A stretch of DNA of 63,326 nucleotides, counting the filler, from Collodictyon triciliatum (taxonomy: Eukaryota), in the NCBI GenBank assembly GCA_043381765.1. It is 4 parts of 4 records of this genome, joined end to end, with 100 filler letters (N's around TTAATTAATTAA, not from the genome) between each part and the next. Parts side by side here need not be neighbours in the genome. Positions count along the whole stretch, not along the records: positions 1 to 19,493 come from JBHJMP010001297.1; 3 more parts are not named here. The stretch is one strand, 5' to 3'. A program made the position numbers and the translations under genes. Numbering within the stretch: the first letter of the stretch is position 1; each line of letters begins with the position of its first letter. The notes below the pieces were generated by a model. That model worked only from the letters and a program-made list of their open reading frames with translations. It made no database searches and was not told the DNA's origin. Positions 318-57,503 of the stretch are shown here, piece after piece.

Positions 318-3300
318 TCAAAAGTCATCCACGTCCGGATTGCCCAGGAGAGACTCTTTCCCAGCAGCGGGTTTTCTTGACGCGGCACCAGTCTTTGGCC
401 TGGACGCACCAGTCGCACTTCCGCTGTGAGACTGACCCGCAGCAGACGGCGCCACAAGAATGGCAGACGCGGTGGACAGCCGCTTCATTCCGGGCCGCGA
501 CTGGGACGATGCAGATGCAGATGCAGATGCAGCAGGAGCAGGAGCAGCACCGAGTGAGGATGAAGCAGAAAGCGAGATGGAGGCGGCGCTGCCGGGCGGA
601 TTGGCTGAGAGAGAAGTAGATAGAGAAGCAGATGCAGATGACTGGGCGAGACTTGTTGCGGTCAGGAAGCTGCCAAACATGCGGTCTGTGTCCTCCTCCA
701 TCTCCATCATGTTCCCACGCACTCTCTGGAGCCGCGCGGTGGAGGACGTGAAGGACGGGTTGGAGAACTCCGGGAGAATGTTTGAGATGGTCTGTCCGTG
801 CGTCAGACTGCTCTTTGAGCGGGCGAGTGCGGGCCGTGTGCTCGCAACTGCAGAAGTTGACGTTGACGTTGATGTCGATGTGCCAGCATTCGTGGGTTCG
901 CTGCTGCTGCGGCGCGAATGGCTCTGCTTCTTCAACTTTTGTGCCTGCAAAGCGGCATTTGACATGTGCGTTGATGATGATGACGATGACGATGACGATG
1001 CCGAGCCGGGCGGCTTGAGCGGAACCACATAGACGCTCTCCACAGGCAGAAAGGCGTACGCGTCGGCCAGGGACGGGCGCATGGCCGAGTGCGGGATGGA
1101 ATGGGCGCGCGGTGCAGCGAGTGCGGTCTGCGTTGTGTGCGGCGGAGGCGGGCGATGGCGTTGGTCTGTGTTGTGTGCGGCGTCGCCGGCGGGCAGAGCA
1201 ACCCAGTGGATCAGAGTCGGGACGTGGGAGCACTGGCTGATGGTGAGCTGATGGGAGGCAGAGCGGTACACAAAGATCTCCCAGTGTGTACTGGACTGGC
1301 GCGTCTGCATCTCCCGCACAATGGACTCGAAGCGCTCGCGGCCTTCCTCCTGCAGAGCCTCGGCCACAATCCAGGCGTAGTCGGCATCGGCCTTTGCGAG
1401 ATAGTGCAGCGCAAGGTGGATCTGCGCATGCCTGACTCCGCGAATCACACGCCCACGAGAATCAGCCGCAGCCGCAGCCATTGCCAGTGCGGATGATGGT
1501 GATGATGGCGATGCAGCGTGATTTGCACTCGCAGGCCCGACAGCCGGCGTGGTCAGCGCCTGTGTAGTCTGCATAAAGTGGAGCAGAAGGCCTCGGTGGG
1601 ACTCGCAGGAGGCCTCGTGTGCGCACTGCACAAGGCTGCCAAGGTCCAAGGCAGCCACCTCGACCAGCGAGCCTTGATTATGCTTGCGGAAGACGTCGAT
1701 ATAGTACTTGAAGTTGTTTGCCACGCGGACAACCCGCTTCTCAAACTTCCTGCGCAGTTCCACGCGCTCATCCTCGTCCAGGTCCTCGCGCACAAAGAGG
1801 CGCATGTTGCCTGGGCTGCTGAGATGCACGAGATACTCGCCCAGCTGGCGATACTTGTCCAGCACAATGGCAACCGTGCGGGTGTCCCCAGCCGTGGATG
1901 CAATGCGGATGAAGGTATTGAGGAAGCGGAAGGACAGGTCCAGCACCGGAAAGTCTTCACGGTCGGCCGCGCCGATGGCAATCTTGTACACCGTCAGTGA
2001 CAGCGTGTGTGGGTGGTCGCGCGTCGAGCGGACGTTTTCGGCAAACAACATCAATAGTTGCCGCATCACCTTCCACTCGAACCACATGTTTTGCGAAAAG
2101 AGCTCCGCGTACGCCATCTTGTTCATGGCCAAGTAGTCAAAGTTGTAGCGGTGCGCATCGCGGGTGTGCGACCAGCTCGTCTCTACAAAGCGGTTCTTGC
2201 TGAGCCCATATGTCAGTGCTATGTCTGTGTACGCCTCCAGAATCATGGTGAAGACAGACTTGTCGCCCATCTGGATGGCCTTGAGCCCAAACTCGGAGAG
2301 ACTCTCCACTGCGTCAAAGAGCTGGAGCTGCCTCGAAAGGACAATCTTTCTGTCGTTCAGCTCATGCTCTGTCAGGTTTGTTGCGCGGGTGCACGACTCG
2401 GTGATGCGCTTGACAAGCTTGATCGGCACCATCTGCTGCAGCATGTACACAAAGTACGGGAACATCATCAGCAGCGAAATGCACAGCCAAAGCACAGACA
2501 TATATATCACAGAATTTGGAATGGACACTTCCATCACAAAATATGTCAACGACACGTGCAGAACAACTGCAGAGACCACCCACATCAGCATCATGAATAT
2601 CCTTGGGTTCACCACAAGGTACAGAGCCGCTGTCCCAGAATAGCGCAGGCACGCAGATTGCGCAGCCGTAAGTATCACCATAAACATAAAGCGTGTCTTT
2701 TCTGAATGTTGCTCTCCAAGGCGTGCCAGCGACGAAATCAGCTGGTCTTCATCCTTGAATGCAATCGTGTTGGTAAACTGCACGATGTTGCTTGCGCGAA
2801 CTCCGGCAAAGACAGGCACAATCAAAAAGAGGGAAATAATCGGAAGTGCCACAGAAAGCACCTGAATCGCACTGCGCCCGCCAAACTTGGCGTCATACGC
2901 ATGCATCACGCGCCCTTGCGAGGACGTCGAGGAGGAATGATACAAATACTCGGATGGGATGAGCTGGCTGGTGGAAAGGCTGCTAAAGTTGAGTCCAGAT
3001 GTCGTCGGCAGGTCATCATAGCGGATGCGTCGGTTCTTTGTGCTCAACGTACGATAGTTGGCCTCCTCATCTGAATGCGTCGTCAGCTCGCTTCGGTCTT
3101 CGCCTCGTTGGTACTGTGCTAAAATCATCTCTTCAAGGGTGTCCAGCTTTGAGACCTGATCAGGAAGGATTGATCGGAAGCCCGGGTCGTTGATTTCTGT
3201 CGATTCGGATGCCTCTAGCGTAGAACCTGCAAAGCGAGGCGGGTTGGCGTTGTCTGGATATTGAGTCGAACTTTGTGCACCAGTGGCCCTCGTTTGTGGT

Positions 3301-6300
3301 GTCTGGTATTGGTGTTGGCGTTTGATTTTGCGGCACAGCCCCAGCAGTTGGTTCAACTCGCAGACACTACAAATCTCCTTGACCAAGCGCTCTGCATCCT
3401 GTTTATATCCTTTAGCCAGATACCATGTGGCGAGCTTCAAGTAAGAGCGAAGAACACCGTTGTTTGAGCGCATTTTTAAGGCAAATTTGATGAATTGGCC
3501 AAGAATAACATCGTGCTCAAAGTCGTATCGGCGTGAAATCTCGCATATAGTTGTTATTTCGTAGCTCATATTATGAGTGGCTTGAGGAAGTTTGATCTCT
3601 GTAAAGAGGCCTCCATAGAAGACCAAGAAATCGTTAATCTGAATCACTTTCTGAGTCAAAAATATGCGAGCTGTAGGGCCGAAATTGTTCGCTGCGCCGA
3701 TTAAATAGCAAACCAAAGTACGGTAGAAAAGGAAAATGGCCTGTGCAGCCGGTGCATCCTTCTTTGTCAGACACGCCCTGAGGAACGTGTTCATAAACTT
3801 GATGGAAAGGTCAAGCACCCCAAAATCACCACGCGAGACAGCAAGCTTTGTGATTTTGTAAACATGATAGCCAATCAGATTGCACATATCCGGGAGATTC
3901 CCCATGGCAGAGGAAAATATGATCTGGAAATGACGGAAGGTCTTCCATTCTACCCACAGCTTCTGAGCAACAAGGTGCCCTATCGCGTCATTAGATAGTG
4001 AAATAAAGTCTGGATTTTGTCGCATGGCTTCTTTGATATTGAACCACTCTGGATGGAGCTCTTCTTTGTGGTCACCATACTGACTGCAGAATGAACCCAG
4101 CGCGTCAATCACAGTAAAAGACATATTTTTCTCGTTAAATTGCATCACTTTCGAGGCAAGGTTGGACAGGCGCTCAATGGTCATGGTCACTTCGACCTGG
4201 CAGTTTTGCACCATATCCACTGAGCGAGCATTTATAAATTTCAATCCTCCATCCAGTATCATCCCAATCACACGGGGAGGGTCGAGCATCGAAAACAGAA
4301 GCGAAAAGTAAGGAATCAGCAGAATCACAGAGATGTTTGCCACAAAGATAGAGATAAAAAGCGTTCTGGAGGATGATGTTGGCTCCCCCACAGTGAAATC
4401 CACAAACATGATGTAAAATGTACCCGCGATAAAGAAGCTGAGCATCAGGTGGATGCTTGGATTATATAGGAAGTAAGAGGTCACTGCTGGTGTGAACCGA
4501 CCGGCAGCAATGTTGACGAATGTGGCCGTCACCACAAGGACGACAGTAAGGATAACAGCCATGATTTCACCCAAGCCTCCGACCTCTGGCGCCGATTGCT
4601 GGTCTTTGTTCTCCACATCGATGGATATGTCGATGATAAAAGAAATGAGGACCACCAGCACAATCATAATATAAAAGTTGCGACGGAAGCTATCAGTGAA
4701 AATGTATCCAAATGGCCGATTCTCAAGTGATGAAATCTTGCGGAAGTTAGAGACTAGCTTTGTCTGTCGGGTAAACGACGAGACGCCACACAAAGAGAAA
4801 AGATATAAAAAGTAGTCTTTTGCAACAGAGATAAAATCAGTGAATGAATTCAGTCCACTGAACGACGGTCGGCGCGAACGCGAGGAGAACGATGCCGATG
4901 TGTGACCCATGGCATTAGGAGAGACATGCATGAACGAATCGGTTTGATTATCATCATCCTCTAGGGTCGAGTAACGACGATTGTGACGAGAGATGCGTCG
5001 TGTGATGCGCACTACAGGGATGGTATTATCCGCCATATTCCTCTCTTCTGCAGCCGTCTCTTCATTGTATATGACTTTTCCAGTCAGCTCTGGGAAGCGA
5101 GAAAGGAAGCTGGCCAGGTGGAACTTTTCGCTAGATGTCAAGTAATTCAAGTTTGTTCCACGGTCGTTTAGCTCCCATATATCCGATGTTTTGTAACTTA
5201 AAAACTCTGTCCACAAAGCCAGCAGTTTTGCATGGGGCACCGATGATAGACTTTTCTGAACTATTTCGACGTTTGGATGATTAGACTTTCGGTAGTGAGA
5301 TGCGAGTTTCATTTGCGCACGAATAGCGCCATCGCACAATTCATTGGTTTGTCCGTCTCTTCCAAGTTGGATAAAAATGCGGAATAAATCGTCATGACAC
5401 GGAGACTTTTTCGTGTGCGCAAACTCTACCACGCTGTACATATCATGCGCTGCAATGCCGACAACTTCGTGCATGTTCTTTTCCAGGGCCTGTGATGCAT
5501 AGTACTTGAAGAATGATGCAATCAAAATGACCGCACGGCCGATTTCAACCTCATTTGCTGTTTCTTGGTCGGTAATTGCGTTTGTGCGGTCAATCAACTT
5601 AATGGCACACTTGGAGTATTGATGCATGGTCACGTTCAAGCCGCGAATTTCTCCATGATTCAGCGAATAGCGCAAAAAGGTGTTAAAGAATCGAATGGAT
5701 AAGAGCAGAGCGTGCACATCCTCCTTTGTGGCGGCAGATTCTGCGATGTGGCGTGTCTTGATGCCGATGAGATGGCAGAGATCTTGAAGCTGCTTGATGG
5801 AGTCAGAAAAGAGGTTTTGAAACTGGCGCAGAATCTTCCATTCCACCCAAATACAACGCTGTTGGAGAAGCTCATTAAATTCGTCACTCATTGTGACAAA
5901 GTCGGGGTCGTTGTGCACAAACTGTACCTTGAACCATTCTCTTGGCAAATCCTGCTTCACTTCGCTGTATCTATCAGAAAGCGTCCAAAGCGCTTCAACA
6001 GCCAGGAACGCAACATTTTTCTCATGGCGGTAAAGAGCTCGCAAGGCAATGTCAGCCAAGCGATCTACAGACAGGATAAACAACAATTGGGATTGCTGAA
6101 TCTGCTCCAGACGCAGGACAGAAACCCTTGATGGGTGAATTGCCTCAAGGGCTTGAAGCCCATTCTTTGTGATCCGACGGATGATTTGGTTCGGGCGAAC
6201 AAAATCAAGCAAATACGCATGGTATGGGAACATGACATTCACCACCATACCAGCAAAGAAAACAGCGACGCTGAGAGTCCAATCAGTGAGCTTGGGGTAC

Positions 6301-9300
6301 GGAATGCTGATGTTGCAAAACAAGAGGAACAAGTTGCTGATGACCATAAATGCCATTGTACACACGACAACGCGACTGCGAAGGAACAAAGGAACAACAA
6401 CAGGCGAGAAATGGACAGTGGAAATCTGAAGCAGAACGGGACTGGCAGTGAAAATAACGGCCAAAAGCTTCATGTTCAATTCACCAACACCAGTCAAGCG
6501 GCGGCGGCTCACAACAGAATTGAACGCTTCAAGGGGTTCCGAAATGGGGGTACCAAAGATCAGCTGGTCTATTGCAAAAGCAGAGAAAAACAAGCTTGCG
6601 GCAAGGAGTGGCAGGCCAAACAAGGAAAGGAATTGCTGCAAGAAGGAAATCATCGCCCCTTTGTTTTGTGATTCAATAGCTTCAGTTTGAAGAACGGTTC
6701 GCTGAAGTTTGAATGGCGATTCCAAATAGCGGCGTCGCTGTCGCTGGTAGATAGGTTTGGCAGTCGAGGAGCCGGTTAGTAAATTGTCCAGGGGTGGCTC
6801 ACTATCCAATATCCCGTCAGGGCGGTACGTACTTTCATGATATCGAGCGCATCATTAGTTTTGGCAATGGATGCATGTGCGATTCATTATAAAACGTCAC
6901 ATGTTGTATTCTGTCAAAAAGAAAAAGAAAAAGAAAAAGAAAAAGAAAAAGAAAAAGAAAAAGAAAAAGAAAAAGAAAAAGAAAAAGAAAAAGAAAAAGA
7001 AAAAGAAAAAGAAAAAGAAATGGAGAAATAAAATGAGAAATAAAAAGAAAAGAAAATAGGAAAAATCATTACTCGGCTGCTATTGTTTGGTGATGCTTCC
7101 ATTCTCTCACTGATACCATGGGGGGAAAAGGTGACCTGGAGAGTCTCTTGTCCAACGAAAATGCGATTTGTTCCTCTTTCCGAACGTCGATGTTGAGATA
7201 CGCCCAATAAAACTCCGCAAGATAGGCTCTCTTGCTGATGGCGATATAGTCCAACGAACGGGTTCTATCACGAACTTCCCAATATTCACTACTTTCGAGA
7301 GTGGTGAGATCGGTCCAGTCAAGTCGAAGAGCGTCCTTTGATTGTGTCCTAAGCAATTTGGAGATACTTAAAACTGGCAATACATCATCCTGCATGTAAT
7401 GGAACAATGCTTGGCGGATAAACACATGGCGGATACCGGAATCAATTAGGCCTCCTGGTCTGTATTCCAAACCTCCGTCTATATTGAGGAGAACATCAAG
7501 AAATTCGGCGTAGAAATGATTGCCTTCTTCGTAGCAGGACTTTGTAAGACATGCAAGATCGTCAGCAATCACTTCTGCCGCAACTTTGAGCTTCTTTTCG
7601 AGGGACGATATTGTGTAGTTTTTGAAAAGCCGGCCGATTTTAGGGATTCGATCAGCAATTTCAGCCACATCGGCGTTGGTTGAGTTATCCGTAAAAGCCT
7701 TGGAGTGAACTTTGAGGAGAAACTCGCAGAGTGAGCGATACTGGGAGATGGTGTAGAGTAGAGTTCTGACCTCCCCTTTCTCCAAAGAAAGTTGTATGTA
7801 TGTGTTGAACAGTCTCATCATCATGTCGCATGCATGATAATCACGCCTATGGACAGAATCTTCGGCAATGCGTCGGGTGCAGATGGCAATCACACAACAA
7901 ATGTCTTTGAGCTTCATTAAAGAGCTCTCGAAGATAAACTGGAACTGGCGACCAACCTTCCATTCATACCAGTTTCGACGCTCGATGAGGGCTTTGGTAT
8001 CATCTTCTTGGATGGTAACAAAATCCATGCTTTGTTGTATATCCGCAGAGATATTAAACCATTCCTCAGGTAAGGTCGACTTCTTCCCGCCGTAATCGAT
8101 GGTCTTTTGGCATAAGGTTTCCATAAGCTTGCTCACCGTCTCTTTATCCTTCTTGTCCAGGGCATAGTTTGCCAAGTCAGCAAGCTGTTCAATTGCTCGG
8201 ATGGCTTCCTCTTGAGCACGCGCTACGCTGTTTCCTGTAACTCTCTTTTCCATGGCCTTAACGTACTTACGCTCACGACGTTGAACGCGATCGATCACGG
8301 TGATTGGGCTGAGGAAGTTGAACATGTAGGCAAAGAACGGAATCAATATCCACACAACAAATCCGAGACAGGAGATTCCGATGAATGCTGCAGTTTTGGG
8401 ATAGCTTTTGTTCACTACAAAGAAGTTTGTCAGAATGAAAAAGACTTGGCAAAATGTACACAATCCACCGACGGCCTTAACAACAGGATCGTCGTAGAAT
8501 ATACGCAGAGCAAACGGGGTAAAACGAGCGGATGCCATGTTCAGGAGCAGGCCAGTAGCGGTGAGAATGACAATTAGTTGTACAGCCATCGTTTCACCAA
8601 GTCTAGGTTTTTTTTTTTTGGATTGTCATTTTTCTTTTCTGCATTTATTAAATTGGAAAGGAAAGGCTTTTTTTTTTGAAGTTATACATGGAAATAAGTA
8701 TCGAACAGCGAATGTTATGTGTCATACCGCGATATGGATGATCTGACTTGAAACATGGGTTGAGTGATGATTTCCTCGAGTGTTTGAAGCAGAGGGCGAC
8801 TCCCCGTGACAGAGTCTAAAGTCAACGTGACCATCCAGACGGCTATAACGATGACTAGGACTATTGCAGAAACAACCCATTTTTCTCGGTCTTCACCACT
8901 GTACGTAAGCGTCAATGTATTCAATTCGAGGGATTTACCGGATGATTCATGATCGGACCTGAATAATAAGCATTTTATTACAAACAGTTAGCTAGGGTTT
9001 ACTTAAAAACACACATAGATATTATTCCATTTCCTTTTTTTTTTTTGAATGAAAATAATAAAGATAAACTTTTTCGAGGATGCTCCATAATAGCCAAGAT
9101 TTGTGTTCAAATGAGACTTCAGGTCAAAGGATGATTGGGATAAAGATCTTTTCAGTGGTTTGATGCGACTAATTTCGTATTCTTCGGTGCTCTTTTCTCT
9201 TCCGTTTTCAGAAGCAGTCTTCTCTCCAAACGAAAAGCTCCCTCGTCTGGCGAGAGGTTTCTCGTAGGTTTGGAATATATCATCACTATCGACGAACGAT

Positions 9301-11112
9301 GTTCTAAGCCCTTCAGACAAAACAGAGTCTGATCGTAATGTTTGTCGATTAAAACGAGCCTTTACATCTTGCAGTTGTCTCTTCGCCACTTCAGAGAGGA
9401 ACACAATGCGCTCTGCAGCGCGCTCTTCAGCTTCTCCAATGTCTGGCTTCTGAAATATCATGAGCTCACGGTAGATGGCCTCGAATTGTGTAGGCGTAAT
9501 TCCCTCCACGTTTTTCAGAATCTTTTCGGCGTAGCCTTGGGCATCTGCGTGATTGGTGATGCTGATTTCATTGGCGAAGCAAAGATAGTAGGTAGCGAGG
9601 GCAATTTTTGCCTTGACTACAGAGCGTTCACTCTTTCCAGAGAAGCCTCTGATCTCACTGTCGTCCTCGATTCCAAGTCTTAAGAAGACATCCAGGACTC
9701 GATTGTGGCATTCAACATGATTGAGAAAGGCGTGCAGACACAGGGAAGCAAATTCGTTTGCAGTTGGGCCGAGAATGGCATGTACTTCTTGTTGGAGAGC
9801 AAGTTGGCCGTAGTAGCGGATGTAACCACAGATTCGGACCACGCGCTCCTGGAACATTTCTTTTGGAAGGATGTAACGCCGTGAATCGTTCTCTCGAAAG
9901 CCATCTAACCTGCGGCTACGGGTGTATGTACTACTCATGACCATGTCCTTCATAACCATCAGATTTTGGGCCAGACAGCAGTACTCGTGCAGGACTTGGT
10001 TATAGACTTTGGGCTGCCCAGCGTTCATGGCACATCGTAGTTGGGTGTTGAAGTAGAGAATGCACATATCAACAACGGGGGCATCGCCATTAACGGCGGC
10101 ATATTCAGCGATGGAGCGAACGTTGATAGCAATCAGATGGCAAAGGTCAGGAATGGAGCGCAACGCAGTCATGTATAGACTGTGCATATGCCAGAGAGAA
10201 ATGTATTCGACCCAGGAGCGACTGGCTGAGAGCTCGTCGATTTCTGTTTCTGACAATGCGAAGGAGTCGAGAAGATGGACATTTTTTATCTGCAATCGAA
10301 ATGTTGATTGATTATATTTGTGTATACGCGAGTAAAACATTAGATATAGTGAGCCAAGATAAAAAGAAAAGTACCTGCAGAACAAACCAGGATTCATCCA
10401 ACTTCCTCTTGATGTTGCTGTAGGTCATGCAGAAGGTAAAGACGGCGTCGACAATCTCGGTACACGTTCCTTTCCCTTTCCATGCAAAGACTTTTGTGCC
10501 TGTATCTGTGAGACGCTCGAGTGTAATGAGAATCTCTTCTTTGTTATCGGAAAGCCTCTTTGGGTCGGTCTCATGCTCAATGCTTTGGCAGATGGTCCCA
10601 AGGTGGGAAATGGTGGACGCCACGACCTTTGCAATGTCGAGGAAGGCGAAGAGACCAAACAAGAAGGACGGCAGCAGCATCATGGACACAATCATCAGGA
10701 AGACAGAGAAGAAGAGCCCCTCGCGCGGGACAAACTGGTCGCTGGCTGTGTGCTTGACAACCACAAAGACGACATTGCTGATGGTGTAGAGCCCGACCCC
10801 TTTCAGGAAGAAATCGTCGCGCAGAAACCGGTATATCATGTGCGGAGACAGATTCGACGTGGCGTAGCTGGGGATAAAGAACGTGAAAGAAAGCACGGTG
10901 GTTAGCATCTCGGACATGGCCTCCTGCAGATAATCCAGCGTGTGAAGCGCCTGCGTGTAAGTCGGGTTGGTCAGCGCATCCAGGAAGTACGACCAGTCGT
11001 GGACGCCCAAGGCGACGTCGACGGCCATGCAGGCAAGAAAAAGCAGCAGGATGAAGGCAAGCGCAAGCCCATACTTGACCAGCTTCTGCTTCTTGAAGCG
11101 AGGTAGGGCCAT
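318..11112 (-). CDS. Giant multi-pass membrane protein (~3410 aa) with five tandem DUF2254-like modules; 5 exons: 11112-10375, 10289-9070, 8958-8728, 8602-7073, 6831-318
   Basis: Four GT-AG introns (10290-10374, 8959-9069, 8603-8727, 6832-7072) join ORFs 10312..11112, 9003..10397, 8715..8924, 7069..8589 and 318..6809 in frame. The exons total 10233 nt = 3411 codons. Each module has about 4 hydrophobic helices, then motifs like RFTP..F..DP, PYF..L....P..II, L.D.A..AL, EWF, DF, W.EWK..RQF and FNT.LR. The DUF2254 assignment is from motif recall. Confidence 0.85.
6916..7020. repeat. (GAAAAA)n microsatellite inside an intron of the giant gene
   Basis: Direct inspection. Confidence 0.95.
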
Positions 11113-11905
11113 GGCTGTGTATTATGTTTGGTTAAATTGCTGTTTCTGTATTTTTTTTTTAGTTTGAAAGGTAGATAAAATGTTTGCTTGCAATTAAAGG
11201 AGGATATAGGCGAGTTGAACCTGGCTGTGGGTTAAGGAGCTGAAAGGATCAAAGGATCGAGGGCTCGGTTGTCACAAGAGTCGCTTCTAGTTTGTGTTCA
11301 TATTTCACTTTTTTTTTTTCTTTTTTACGGTTTAGAAGATGTGCTGGGTTCAAGTGATCGAGGAGGGGTTTGGGTGGGCAGGTGAGATCGAGTTTGCAAA
11401 TGGCAGCAAAGAATGCCTGTGTGTGGCGAGGAACACTCATGTTTCTTGTGTTCTTGCGTGTGGTGTGTTTGATTGGTTCATAGATTCGTGCGGGTTGTAA
11501 GCATCTCTGTCCGTGTGTGTGTGGTAGGACGCGAGGCTGATTGGTTTGGTGGTGATAAGCGGCTGGCATTAGTGCCACATATGGATTTCCACGCTATTCA
11601 GCGTTGGTCTTTGTGCAGATCATATGACCATTATGGAGTTTTTATTAGTGGAGTAGATAAAATTATCTTTAAAAGGGATATAATTTTGAATGTTTCGACT
11701 ATTGCCATCGAAAACACATGTCCTGTCCTATTAAAGAAACTGTGCACTATTCAACTTTGCTATATTTGGAAAATATGTCAATCGAAAACCAAGCAACCCT
11801 TTTGGATGTGGTCTGTGTTCGAATCCCGCTTGTGGCTTTCTTTATTCGCGGCTGGAAGCGATGGTGGCAGAAGGCGCGTGGGTTGCATCTGCTCGGCGTC
11901 TCGGA

Positions 11906-43400: not shown

Positions 43401-44774
43401 TTGACAAATATATCAAAGAGTTGGAGAATCAGGTCGCTCGGTTCAAGAAAGGGGCTCATAAAGAGGTAGCTTAGTTATCACAATATTAAGTCCACAATAT
43501 AGTTATGATTTTTTTTTAAAATAAAAATAATATGTATATTAATTCGTTTATCATGCGTATAATTAAATTAGCTAGAGTCCCTAAACCAATGCGCACTGTT
43601 TCCATTGCGAGAATCCCAAGAAAAACTTTTTTCTGAAATGCGCCGGATTGAAATAGCCAAACAAGCCCTTTCCAAAATTTTGGAGACCCCTGAAAGCGAC
43701 CGCTCTTTCATTCAGTTAGGAAACGCTCTGCGCTATTCCAATCAAATCCTCCTTTCAAAATACGACTCTAGAATTCAGGTTTCTCCTGTCAATTTAGTAT
43801 CGACATTGCCAGTATCCATGATCGACGAATTGAAGAAGTTGAACGATATATTCACTTTTGGCTTAACGTCTGTCGGTGCCGAACCCAACCAAAAGACCCC
43901 AGCATACTACGACACAGTTATATCTTCTGGCGCCGACACTAAGCCAAAATTAGGCCTTGAGTCCTTTCGCACAAACACAACTATGCAGAGTCCATGGGCT
44001 GTTTGTGTCCACCCTAGGAACGAGAATATATATGTTACAGATGAAGACTCGCAGGTCGTGCACATCTTAACAAAAGACCTGAACCGCATATCAACACATC
44101 ATACTAGTTTGATAATCCCCAACCCACTCCATGGGCCGAGAGGAATCGCCATTTCGAAAGGGGGGCTGATTGCTATTGCCGACTGTGAAGGGCACTCTGT
44201 GAAGCTCTTCACCGACGAACTCGCTCTCGTCAAAACCATCGGCGGGATTAAAGGGATGAACGAGGGTCAATTCAATCGCCCGTACTCCATTTCTTTTGAC
44301 TGTGACGATAACTTCTACGTTGCCGACTCCGGAAATCAAAGAATCCAAAAGTTCAATAAGAAAGGCGACTTCATTTCTGTCATCGGATATCCAAGTGGTG
44401 GCGGTGGATATATCAAATCATTAGTCAACAGTGTGTGTATCAACGAAGAAGAGAGACTTCTGGTTCTTTGTGCCGGCTCTGACGTTGTTTGCATCTTTTC
44501 AAAGGACGGCTCTTTCGAGAGCACCGTTCGGCTCCAAGTTCCGACAAGTATTGAAGGCTGGTCGCATATCTTCCCCGCCTCTCGTGGTCTCTTTGGTGTT
44601 TGTGAAAACAAGACAGGGCTCATCACACTCTATGATTATCAAGGCGCCACCCAACGGCAAATCACCTTAGACGGTTGCATGGGCGCGTGTTTAGCGCCGG
44701 ATGGTACGCTATATGCCTCTAGCCTTTCGTTGAGGTTGGTTTCTGCAACTCAACTTCTAGCCTCTTCTCATTAG
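40441..44774 (+). CDS. LRR - coiled coil - SH3-like - RING - B-box - coiled coil - NHL protein (TRIM-NHL-like E3 ligase), spans an N gap
   Basis: LRRs at 40540-40755 (LSLYHNRIATLPPEI, LSLRSNRLSSLPPEI). RING CTVC..PCEHIFCSVC at 42352-42425, B-box CAVH..FCPSC..CAEC..H at 43045-43140, NHL repeats in 43605..44774. Splice phases are consistent from LRR to RING. Confidence 0.72.
41005..41106 (-). mobile_element. Micro retro-insertion family B with a 36-bp duplication containing a splice donor
   Basis: GGTGCTTTATGATG(C/T)GGTGAGTTTTGAATGAGTATT on both sides of the 30-nt insert 41041-41070. Confidence 0.72.
41659..41699 (+). mobile_element. Micro retro-insertion family A, weak 7-bp TSD
   Basis: TTGAATCGAATAAAGGGG-A7 flanked by CATTTAT. 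Confidence 0.55.
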
Positions 44775-55468: not shown

Positions 55469-56056
55469 NNNNNNNNNNNNNNNNNNNNNNNNNNNNNNNN
55501 NNNNNNNNNNNNNNNNNNNNNNNNNNNNNNNNNNNNNNNNNNNNNNNNNNNNNNNNNNNNNNNNNNNNNNNNNNNNNNNNNNNNNNNNNNNNNNNNNNNN
55601 NNNNNNNNNNNNNNNNNNNNNNNNNNNNNNNNNNNNNNNNNNNNNNNNNNNNNNNNNNNNNNNNNNNNNNNNNNNNNNNNNNNNNNNNNNNNNNNNNNNN
55701 NNNNNNNNNNNNNNNNNNNNNNNNNNNNNNNNNNNNNNNNNNNNNNNNNNNNNNNNNNNNNNNNNNNNNNNNNNNNNNNNNNNNNNNNNNNNNNNNNNNN
55801 NNNNNNNNNTGTTTGTTTGTTTGTTTGTTTGTTTGTTTGTTTGTTTGTTTGTTTGTTTGCTTGTTTATTTACATGCATCCATATTTTGTTTGTTTGTTTA
55901 TTTACATGCATCCATATTTTTTTTTTGTTTGTTTGTTTGTATGTTTGTTTTTTTTAATGAAAAAAAAGCGGTGTGGAACACTTTATTTTCTGGAGATGAA
56001 ATTATTAGAAAAGTAAATAATAATTATGCCTGCCTCAGAAACATAATTCATTAAAG

Positions 56057-57503
56057 GCATCGCTTCTTCACATATTATAAAACAGAGGAAGAATTCCAGC
56101 TCATCGAGAAAGCTTTGCATGCTCACTGGATCCACGAACCCATCGAAATTCACGAGCAAGTCGGTAAAGGTACCTACGGAACAGTCTACAAAACTCAAAA
56201 ACGTGTTAAAGACAGAGAGACTGTGGTAAAAATGCAAGTAATCCACAAGGTTGATGGAATGTCTGTCGAAGAAGTGATGCGTTCCATGATACTAGAGTGC
56301 CAGTTTATGCTTGAATGCAATGGGTCCCCTAATGTCGTGCAGCTATTTCATGTTTATCGCTCCGAGCGCAATTTCTGTATGCTTATGGAGTATGCTGGAG
56401 TATCTCTGAAAGACTTAATGGAGGGCCCTTCACCACCCACGTTTAAATCGTCACAAGTGGTCGAATATACCAAGCAGATATGCCAAGGTATTCTCTTTAT
56501 GCAATCAAAAGATATATACCACGAAGAACTTATCGCTCAGAATATCATCATCACAAGCAATATAGCAAGGATAACAGATTTCGGTATCGCAAGTCGTCGT
56601 AGCAAAGATAGGGTGGGTTCACACTTGCCCACAAGATTTGGAGACTTAAAAGAAGATGGAACAATAAACTGGCAGGCTCCTGAAATTCACGAGGTGGTCA
56701 GCAAGCCTTACTATGATGATGATTATCTATATGGAGATGACGGAGTGAATATCGGCCATCGCGGTGAGCCCAGTAATGTATATTCTTTGGGGCTGCTGAT
56801 ATGGTACATGTTTGCACGTGCCGAGCCCTTCCTAGGTAGCTCAGATACGCAAAGCTACATAGTACGTGGGTATAGACCTGATATCCCTAAAGATGTGCCA
56901 GCTTCCTTGCATCGACTTATTAAAGCATGTTGGAAACAAAATTACAAGTTGCGGCCAAATTTACGTACCATTTTGAAATATTTGGATATAGTTGAATCGA
57001 ACGATGGCATCGTTCCCAGCGAGCTTATGAATGGTCACTTGCCCATTGAGTATGCTTGTATACTGGATATGTATAAGGGAGAATTCATTGAATACTTATT
57101 GGACCACGGACTGGAAAGCTTATCTGAGAAGATGGGAAATGAATATTGGGTTACAGTAAGCGAGATAGTCGACAGATTGGAACAAAACAGCTTACTACGT
57201 CAGTATCATATAAATTCTGAAGACATAGTGACTTTGGTTGCCTTATCCCACGAGCAAGCTGATGCTCCCAAGGAAGGCGCTCATATTCGATTAGTCCGAG
57301 AGATGAATAAGTTTGAGCTTATTCGTTTTGTCGAAACGAAAAAAGATGGAAATGCTAGAGCACTTATCAATATGATAAAATCTCTTTCATTATCTGGAGA
57401 GATTTTGTCATCCCTCAATAACCATGAAGTCCTTTCAAGGTACTCTGTTCCTATAGAGGAAATCGAACGAGCTTCTAACTTGATATCCCAAAGTATGCAA
57501 TAA
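56057..57503 (+). CDS. TKL-like protein kinase or pseudokinase with C-terminal SAM-like helical repeats; single large exon, start uncertain
   Basis: VGKGTYGTVY, VVK, HEELIAQN, ITDFG, WQAPE, NVYSLG and CW..RP. Confidence 0.82.

Follow-up and report, generated by a model that had tools for sequence, protein, structure and literature searches.

Why would a eukaryote carry, within one polypeptide, five copies of a membrane module that nearly all its relatives carry only once? The question is raised by a gene of Collodictyon triciliatum (assembly GCA_043381765.1), located on the minus strand at 11112..318 of the window, by which we mean the whole stretch of 63,326 nucleotides, filler included, that was analysed. 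Its five coding exons specify a membrane protein of 3410 amino acids, made of five diverged modules akin to DUF2254, a widespread membrane family without known function or quaternary structure. We find that relatives of this protein have one module or five, and that the five-module form was probably reached more than once. This pattern suggests, as good though indirect evidence, an assembly of five subunits.

The gene reads as a single unit. Translation in six frames displays five long stop-free frames on the minus strand within 318-11121, which a first-pass annotation, made from the sequence alone, had joined in frame through four GT-AG introns. The joined coding sequence comprises 10233 nucleotides (nt), that is, 3410 codons and a stop, with 0 internal stops. 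These splice sites, proposed from sequence, were then compared with the contigs of four public RNA runs over 7021-11400; three joints are present in RNA contigs and the fourth is supported by the overhang of one contig, so that the proposed coding sequence holds. On the minus strand the coding spans are 11112-10375, 10289-9070, 8958-8728, 8602-7073 and 6831-321, with the stop codon at 320-318. The features of the gene follow, X1, X2 and X3 standing for individual RNA runs.

11221..11288, minus strand: first genomic exon (5' untranslated region, UTR), its 5' end being a splice acceptor CTAG at 11290-11287
11115..11220, minus strand: 5' UTR intron, 106 nt, GT..AG, joint 11114/11221 in X1 and X3
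10375..11114, minus strand: start-codon exon, ATG at 11112-11110; amino acids 1-246, with the membrane bundle of module 1 and the first part of its helical domain
10290..10374, minus strand: intron 1, 85 nt, GT..AG, joint 10289/10375 in X1, X2 and X3 (three of four runs)
9070..10289, minus strand: coding exon 2, remainder of module 1 and linker
8959..9069, minus strand: intron 2, 111 nt, GT..AG, joint in X1 (one of four runs), read as 8956/9068 (cut +2)
8728..8958, minus strand: coding exon 3, end of the linker and first membrane helix of module 2
8603..8727, minus strand: intron 3, 125 nt, GT..AG, joint 8602/8728 in X1 and X3 (two of four runs)
7073..8602, minus strand: coding exon 4, remainder of module 2
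6832..7072, minus strand: intron 4, 241 nt, GT..AG, overhang of one X3 contig
318..6831, minus strand: coding exon 5, a single open frame with modules 3, 4 and 5, the tail and the stop codon

The 5' UTR intron, seen in two of the four runs, ends 2 bases before the start codon, and the N-terminus of the protein is colinear with that of a protein of Diphylleia rotans, P0001. The boundaries of intron 4 come from an X3 contig whose match to the window ends at 7073, with 64 further letters beyond; since 30 of these are exactly those of the window at 6831-6802, the intron extends from 7072 to 6832. Downstream, exon 5 offers one uninterrupted frame of 2170 codons, colinear with the transcript-derived Diphylleia protein (100% of the queried part covered, at 61% identity). 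Of the 20 public runs that contain parts of the region 6700-10500, 18 are RNA according to their records, and most of these 18 are metatranscriptomes of lake water. Intron 4 holds, at about 6916-7020, a long microsatellite which reads (TTTTTC)n on the coding strand.

That the protein consists of five copies of one unit is apparent at once from the comparison of the modules with each other: all ten pairs are similar in BLASTP (E 3e-20 to 6e-61, identity 20-29%). A family hidden Markov model (HMM) of 521 positions, built on 86 single-module relatives together with the five modules, gives five end-to-end matches on the protein, with E values of about 1e-117 to 4e-144. The modules and the tail are placed as follows.

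9342..11103, minus strand: module 1, amino acids 4-562, split by intron 1; HMM E 1e-126; Pfam DUF2254 36.2 bits (membrane part)
7195..8891, minus strand: module 2, amino acids 676-1199, split by intron 3; HMM E 9e-139; Pfam DUF2254 33.6 bits
5085..6632, minus strand: module 3, amino acids 1307-1822; HMM E 4e-144; Pfam 27.1 bits; AlphaFold2 (AF2) model with a predicted local distance difference test (pLDDT) of 92 and a predicted template modelling score (pTM) of 0.90
3315..4667, minus strand: module 4, amino acids 1962-2412; HMM E 8e-117, the match ending at position 481 of 521; Pfam 32.1 bits
1203..2870, minus strand: module 5, amino acids 2561-3116; HMM E 4e-117; no Pfam match at E <= 0.1
321..1202, minus strand: C-terminal tail, 294 amino acids, Ser/Ala/Pro/Thr-rich by composition

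Successive modules are separated by linkers of 107-148 amino acids, Ser-rich and of low complexity. Nine of the ten module ends lie within about 20 nt of those first claimed, but module 4 ends about 195 nt short of its claimed limit; in the collodictyonid group this module is without the C-terminal W-E-R block of the family. The motifs that had been aligned by eye, SWVEY / NWYEWK / IWVEWK / LWVEWK / MWFEWK and FNTQLR / FNTYIQ / FNTFLR / MNTFLR / LNTFIR, are all there in the translations. The five modules align end to end within what we call the helical-repeat subfamily, and its signature residues (W-x-E, N-x-x-x-R, Y-R, Y, D, W-E-x-x-x-R) are largely kept.

Divergence between modules affects defined positions. 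One of them is HMM column 88, where helix 2 reaches its cytoplasmic end with a conserved Arg. In module 1 this residue is replaced by Asn, in the collodictyonid as well as in the Hondaea-type group; His takes its place in collodictyonid module 3 and in Hondaea-type module 4. Over ten proteins, the residues conserved in the family are retained in modules 1 to 5 at 186/256, 222/281, 231/290, 225/281 and 204/290, respectively, and N327 is retained in all modules that have a letter at that position. Because most of the conserved residues persist in all five, no module looks like a decayed spacer, and this retention indicates that all of them remain under constraint.

How the number of modules is distributed among relatives is the heart of the matter. 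An exhaustive HMMER search with module 3 retrieved 547 relatives, most of them about 520 amino acids long and aligned across the whole module. We counted modules in the best 150 of these 547 matches: 142 have one module, six have five, one has four and one is a fragment. The four-module protein, P0004 (2691 amino acids), comes from Fabomonas and is an isoform truncated at its N-terminus; in a longer sibling, P0152, the end of a fifth module can be made out. The fragment, P0011, is cut at both ends inside a module. P0002, as well as P0152, is cut inside its first module, the tail of which is still visible. Diphylleia P0001 and Hondaea P0164 have five modules each. Altogether, the multi-module proteins that are uncut within a module are all five-module proteins, eight out of eight (that of the window, P0001, P0003, P0005-P0008 and P0164). 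Judging from the relatives inspected, intermediate numbers are absent: it is one or five. A word-based search for relatives of 966-2755 amino acids returned none, but it also missed the known P0004 of 2691 amino acids, and it is therefore weak on forms with two to four modules. The first-pass annotation would have been contradicted by a freely variable module number, and the best 150 matches, with P0001 and P0164, speak against such variation.

The five-module proteins belong to collodictyonids (that of the window and two Diphylleia paralogues), to the ancyromonad Fabomonas and to a labyrinthulomycete-type group. EukProt, which the first-pass annotation had named as a place to search for further five-module homologues, has entries from Diphylleia rotans (EP00002_P022025, 3392 amino acids, and P030182) and Fabomonas tropica (EP00163_P002960/1), with the same layout and uncharacterised. 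P0001, a 'complete' open reading frame (ORF) of 3392 amino acids from the Diphylleia transcriptome, is 61% identical to the protein of the window over the queried part, and 64-73% for the four modules compared; it is likely the orthologue of our gene. The two Diphylleia paralogues, P0001 and P0002, are at 61% and 45% identity to the protein of the window. The protein of Hondaea fermentalgiana, FCC1311_071682 (4157 amino acids), also has five modules; those of the Hondaea-type group are not position-wise orthologues of the modules of the window. Hondaea possesses a single-module gene (P0031) besides its five-module gene (P0164). The first-pass annotation knew of no description of such a protein, and we found no paper on it, but in the databases uncharacterised five-module entries from Hondaea, Diphylleia and Fabomonas were already public.

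Single-module relatives, which the first-pass annotation assumed to exist in prokaryotes, are indeed found there. Prokaryote species genomes yield 180 relatives; among the best 80, a majority come under titles that name Myxococcota or deltaproteobacterial metagenome-assembled genomes. A Myxococcota 'DUF2254 family protein', MEZ4265876.1 (P0014, 536 amino acids), aligns over the whole module with one module per chain, and so do single-module proteins of Mastigamoeba, Hondaea and Durusdinium, with the same conserved motifs as in the window. Identity between single-module relatives and a module is 24-35%, with E values down to 2e-85.

Was the number five reached once, or several times? We built a tree from 43 modules of nine proteins and from 16 single-module proteins, leaving out two partial first modules as well as P0164 and P0004. 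Orthology position by position is clean within each of the three groups (with support of 100 among collodictyonids), and does not extend between groups. Orthology of all five positions across the three groups is rejected by the approximately unbiased (AU) test, with a log-likelihood difference of 107 (p-AU 7e-5) under LG+G4 and of 81 (p 1.5e-4) under LG+C10+G4. Position-wise orthology is also rejected between the Hondaea-type and collodictyonid groups (p 0.0011 and 3.6e-4 under the same two models) and between the Hondaea-type group and Fabomonas (p 9e-6 and 1e-48), whereas a separate clade for the modules of each group is not (p 0.59 and 0.48). The joint rejection means that either the five-module form had at least two origins, or modules were homogenised long ago. 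At least two separate five-fold duplications would be the simplest reading of the tree; old gene conversion between modules, or a shared compositional bias, could produce the same pattern.

What links these modules to DUF2254 is the membrane bundle. The Pfam model PF10011 has 368 positions and a gathering cut-off of 28.8 bits, which three exon products reach (exon 1 with 36.2, exon 4 with 33.6 and exon 5 with 35.9 bits). Module by module, the first, second and fourth pass (36.2, 33.6 and 32.1), the third stays just below with 27.1, and the fifth goes undetected at E <= 0.1. The relationship, first proposed from motifs, is thus upheld by the scores, but for the bundle only: the modules of the window match at positions of about 11-168, the match stays within about 4-186 when all eight single-module relatives scanned are included, and the C-terminal half of the model (positions 169-368) is unmatched by the modules of the window. 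A single Myxococcota genome (G002, loci L146 and L148) is instructive here, for in it a canonical DUF2254 gene (244 bits, positions 3-367) coexists with a separate gene of the window type (62 bits, positions 9-168). The two types being separate genes in one genome, we take the modules of the window to represent a sister subfamily, with a shared bundle and its own helical domain of about 350 amino acids. That domain marks a separate subfamily, for which Pfam has no model. Canonical PF10011 proteins, of about 425 amino acids, have in common with the window the N-terminal four-helix bundle – this includes the product of a gene that adjoins betT on an enterobacterial plasmid – whereas their C-terminal half differs from the helical domain.

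The structure predicted for a module is in keeping with this division. Hydropathy yields five clusters of four hydrophobic helices each, 20 in all, which bears out the four or so transmembrane helices first assigned to each module, ahead of a helical soluble domain. The AF2 model of module 3, based on a 94-sequence alignment (pLDDT 92, pTM 0.90), agrees: it has helices at 2-43, 57-92, 96-125 and 134-161, then helical repeats up to residue 550, and the membrane bundle modelled alone has a pLDDT of 88. A module is therefore modelled as a four-helix membrane bundle followed by a helical-repeat domain (HEAT/ARM-like) of about 350 amino acids. Lys and Arg residues number seven before helix 1, two in loop 2 and four after helix 4, against one in loop 3; these counts place both ends of the module in the cytoplasm, and with them the helical domain and the linkers. 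The nearest structural neighbours of the whole module (Foldseek, VIA-align) are designed repeats and HEAT/TOG/ARM proteins, and a sequence search of the PDB gave 0 matches at E <= 10. The bundle model has no Foldseek match at E <= 0.001, its best VIA-align hits (Z 11.6) being generic helix bundles. A search of the ESM Atlas matched only DUF2254 clusters, those of Archaea and Myxococcota, and gave no new name. A prediction of the complex between modules 3 and 4, with alignments unused and without controls, scored 0.02 (mark 0.34), which argues neither for nor against binding.

The single-chain fusion of ring subunits is a familiar theme. In four-repeat voltage-gated Na+ and Ca2+ channels, and in the two-repeat TPC and K2P channels, the subunits of a homo-oligomeric ring have been fused in one chain, to become non-equivalent thereafter. 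The concept is that which we propose here, differing by the number of repeats, four or two, and by an unrelated fold. We know of no natural five-repeat single-chain channel; a literature search for a pseudo-pentamer found no natural case, and our searches gave no paper that dealt with the function of DUF2254, with the five-module architecture or with natural pseudo-pentameric channels. Two further ring channels, the hexameric LRRC8 volume-regulated anion channels and the pentameric bestrophins, are made of subunits in which a four-helix membrane domain is combined with a solenoid or helical domain in the cytoplasm; pannexins and pLGICs are likewise ring channels with four-helix subunits. LRRC8 and bestrophins resemble the modules of the window in layout only, and neither came up as a fold match in the structure searches with the whole module or with the bundle.

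The pattern of one or five makes a ring of five well motivated, and it is around such a ring that we would organise the interpretation. The modules of the single chain would fold back onto each other into a pseudo-five-fold ring, the single-module relatives of Myxococcota, some archaea and some protists would be homopentamers, and the ring would conduct, gate or sense; taken as a whole, we regard this reading as evenly poised between true and false. Twenty membrane helices would then surround a central path, with five helical domains as a cytoplasmic collar, the modules being tied together by disordered Ser-rich linkers of 107-148 amino acids. Having four helices, with both ends on the Lys/Arg-rich, presumably cytoplasmic side, modules could be joined head to tail with no unit inverted. 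Fusion would fix the stoichiometry and the order of neighbours, and give modules the freedom to diverge, as may be illustrated by the helix-2 Arg, which has given way to Asn in module 1 and to His in module 3, or by the loss of the W-E-R block in module 4. Of what the first-pass annotation advanced, the spliced gene, the five modules, the restricted module number and the kinship with DUF2254 are retained, with the reservation that the Pfam match reaches no further than the membrane bundle.

The most speculative step is that the ring would conduct or gate ions or small osmolytes, or sense the ionic or osmotic state of the cell, and channel function is a conjecture. It is put forward because canonical DUF2254 genes adjoin osmolyte and ion transporters in some bacteria. 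The canonical type is found in 1607 plasmid records, and a tblastn search of plasmids with a member of the helical-repeat subfamily gave no match. On a Klebsiella plasmid, betT stands directly upstream of the canonical gene, on the same strand; on a Burkholderia plasmid, that gene lies between genes for a mechanosensitive channel and a chloride channel, with a sodium:proton antiporter gene in the same stretch. For Tn6062, Holt et al. (2011; PMC3139670) showed that betU and a neighbouring second 'putative transporter' jointly make growth possible at 0.8 M NaCl, a gain in salt tolerance. By analogy, an ion or osmolyte role for the shared bundle is plausible. The sole papers found to discuss DUF2254 deal with predicted knots (PMC11184937).

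Several observations weigh against the conducting ring or its repeated invention. The transporter context just described is that of a paralogous subfamily, whose C-terminal half is unlike that of the window type, and the third of the three canonical loci examined, in Sulfitobacter, is without any ion-related neighbour. For the closest single-module subfamily, we scanned 80 Myxococcota loci, in which the ORF caller recovered the family gene in 51 of 80 at first pass: no neighbour is conserved, the best being present in 19 of 80 and without a Pfam match, while an aldo/keto reductase and a protein kinase are among the next commonest, each present in 16 of 80. In Foldseek and VIA-align, no channel or transporter of solved structure stands out from the helical-bundle background as similar to the whole module or to the bundle alone. 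As for the tree, position-wise orthology between collodictyonids and Fabomonas is not rejected (p 0.11 under LG+G4, 0.64 under LG+C10+G4), and tests of single positions leave one clade unrejected for module 2 (p 0.125) and for module 3 (p 0.116). 'Always five' may therefore come down to just two events, or to one followed by old homogenisation.

A ring of five might well exist and conduct nothing. It would be a membrane-anchored scaffold, a sensor or an enzyme-like machine, its bundle mainly an anchor, and the polar residues of its helical domain (W-x-E-W-K, F-N-T-x-x-R, Y-R, D, W-E-x-x-x-R) would bind a ligand or a partner protein. Most of the nearly invariant residues indeed belong to the soluble helical repeats rather than to the membrane helices; domains of the HEAT/ARM/TOG type commonly serve as scaffolds for binding; and neither a channel-like fold match nor transporter neighbours in Myxococcota came to light in the searches above. 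Yet the helices too hold conserved Pro, Phe and Arg positions, and the bundle is common to canonical DUF2254, which adjoins osmolyte or ion transport genes in two of three plasmid loci. We hold this alternative to be unlikely, while deserving serious attention.

The absence of any ring is what a second alternative supposes: modules would be autonomous, carried on flexible linkers or engaged in some other assembly (for example between chains), and the number five would be the frozen accident of one or two old duplications. Linkers of 107-148 amino acids are so long and of such low complexity that they impose no geometry on the modules; a five-module ancestor shared by the collodictyonid and Fabomonas groups is compatible with the tests, and gene conversion among modules could give a false appearance of independent origins. 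What this account handles poorly is constancy: were the units autonomous, their number should drift, whereas no module has been lost, gained or left to decay in any of the eight uncut proteins, which represent three eukaryote lineages very distant from one another; and the orthology of Hondaea-type modules with those of either other group, or across the three, is rejected under two models. It seems to us rather improbable. That adjacent single-module genes were misread as one is scarcely credible, for, even if RNA contigs were compared only from 7021 on and intron 4 rests on one contig, spliced contigs join exons 1-2, 2-3-4 and 4-5 in frame, modules 3-5 share the 2170-codon frame, and Diphylleia, Fabomonas and Hondaea all have colinear proteins of five modules, two of which derive from assembled transcripts.

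Returning to the pseudo-five-fold ring, its most far-reaching version would make DUF2254-type proteins a hitherto unrecognised family of putative pentameric pores or valves for ions or osmolytes, fused into one chain at least twice, independently, in eukaryotes, and the fused forms the first natural single-chain pseudo-pentameric channels, with five-fold symmetry where the four-repeat Na+/Ca2+ channels have a four-fold one; this we put forward tentatively, with doubts outweighing confidence. More generally, the pattern of one or five is a strong and cheap prediction of the stoichiometry of DUF2254 proteins. If the ring were true, fused forms would provide five separately mutable positions in one gene, the very property which made four-repeat channels informative, and the link of canonical DUF2254 with the salt-tolerance cassettes of enterobacterial plasmids gives the family some practical interest.

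The messenger of this gene has an unusual beginning. The X1 and X3 contigs run 22 and 24 letters beyond 11288, into a leader which is absent from the window at up to three mismatches, and which is joined in the RNA at the CTAG acceptor (11290-11287). The same leader is found at the extreme 5' end of 65 contigs of a metagenome collection (L081-L145). Behind it these contigs show 61 different sequences, nearly all of which have an ATG a short way downstream; no contig of this set maps to the window. The common leader extends over at least 36 nt (L093:1-36, AACCGATCAAGTAGCTAACACTACCTAATCAAAGAG). This pattern is the signature of spliced-leader trans-splicing, and our literature search found no paper tying a spliced leader to Diphylleia, Collodictyon or CRuMs.

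Some features of the surrounding DNA may be added. Positions 1-2000 of the window, which include the 3' end of the gene with its Ser/Ala-rich tail, have a G+C content of 57%, against 23-45% across most other parts. The window contains 11 runs of N, a mark of scaffolded sequence. Other ORFs in it are at 17436-19148 (minus strand), 43572-44774 (plus strand), 21527-22513 (minus strand) and 56055-57503 (plus strand), the four being two NHL-repeat beta-propellers, an RF-1 domain protein (peptidyl-tRNA hydrolase type) and a protein kinase.

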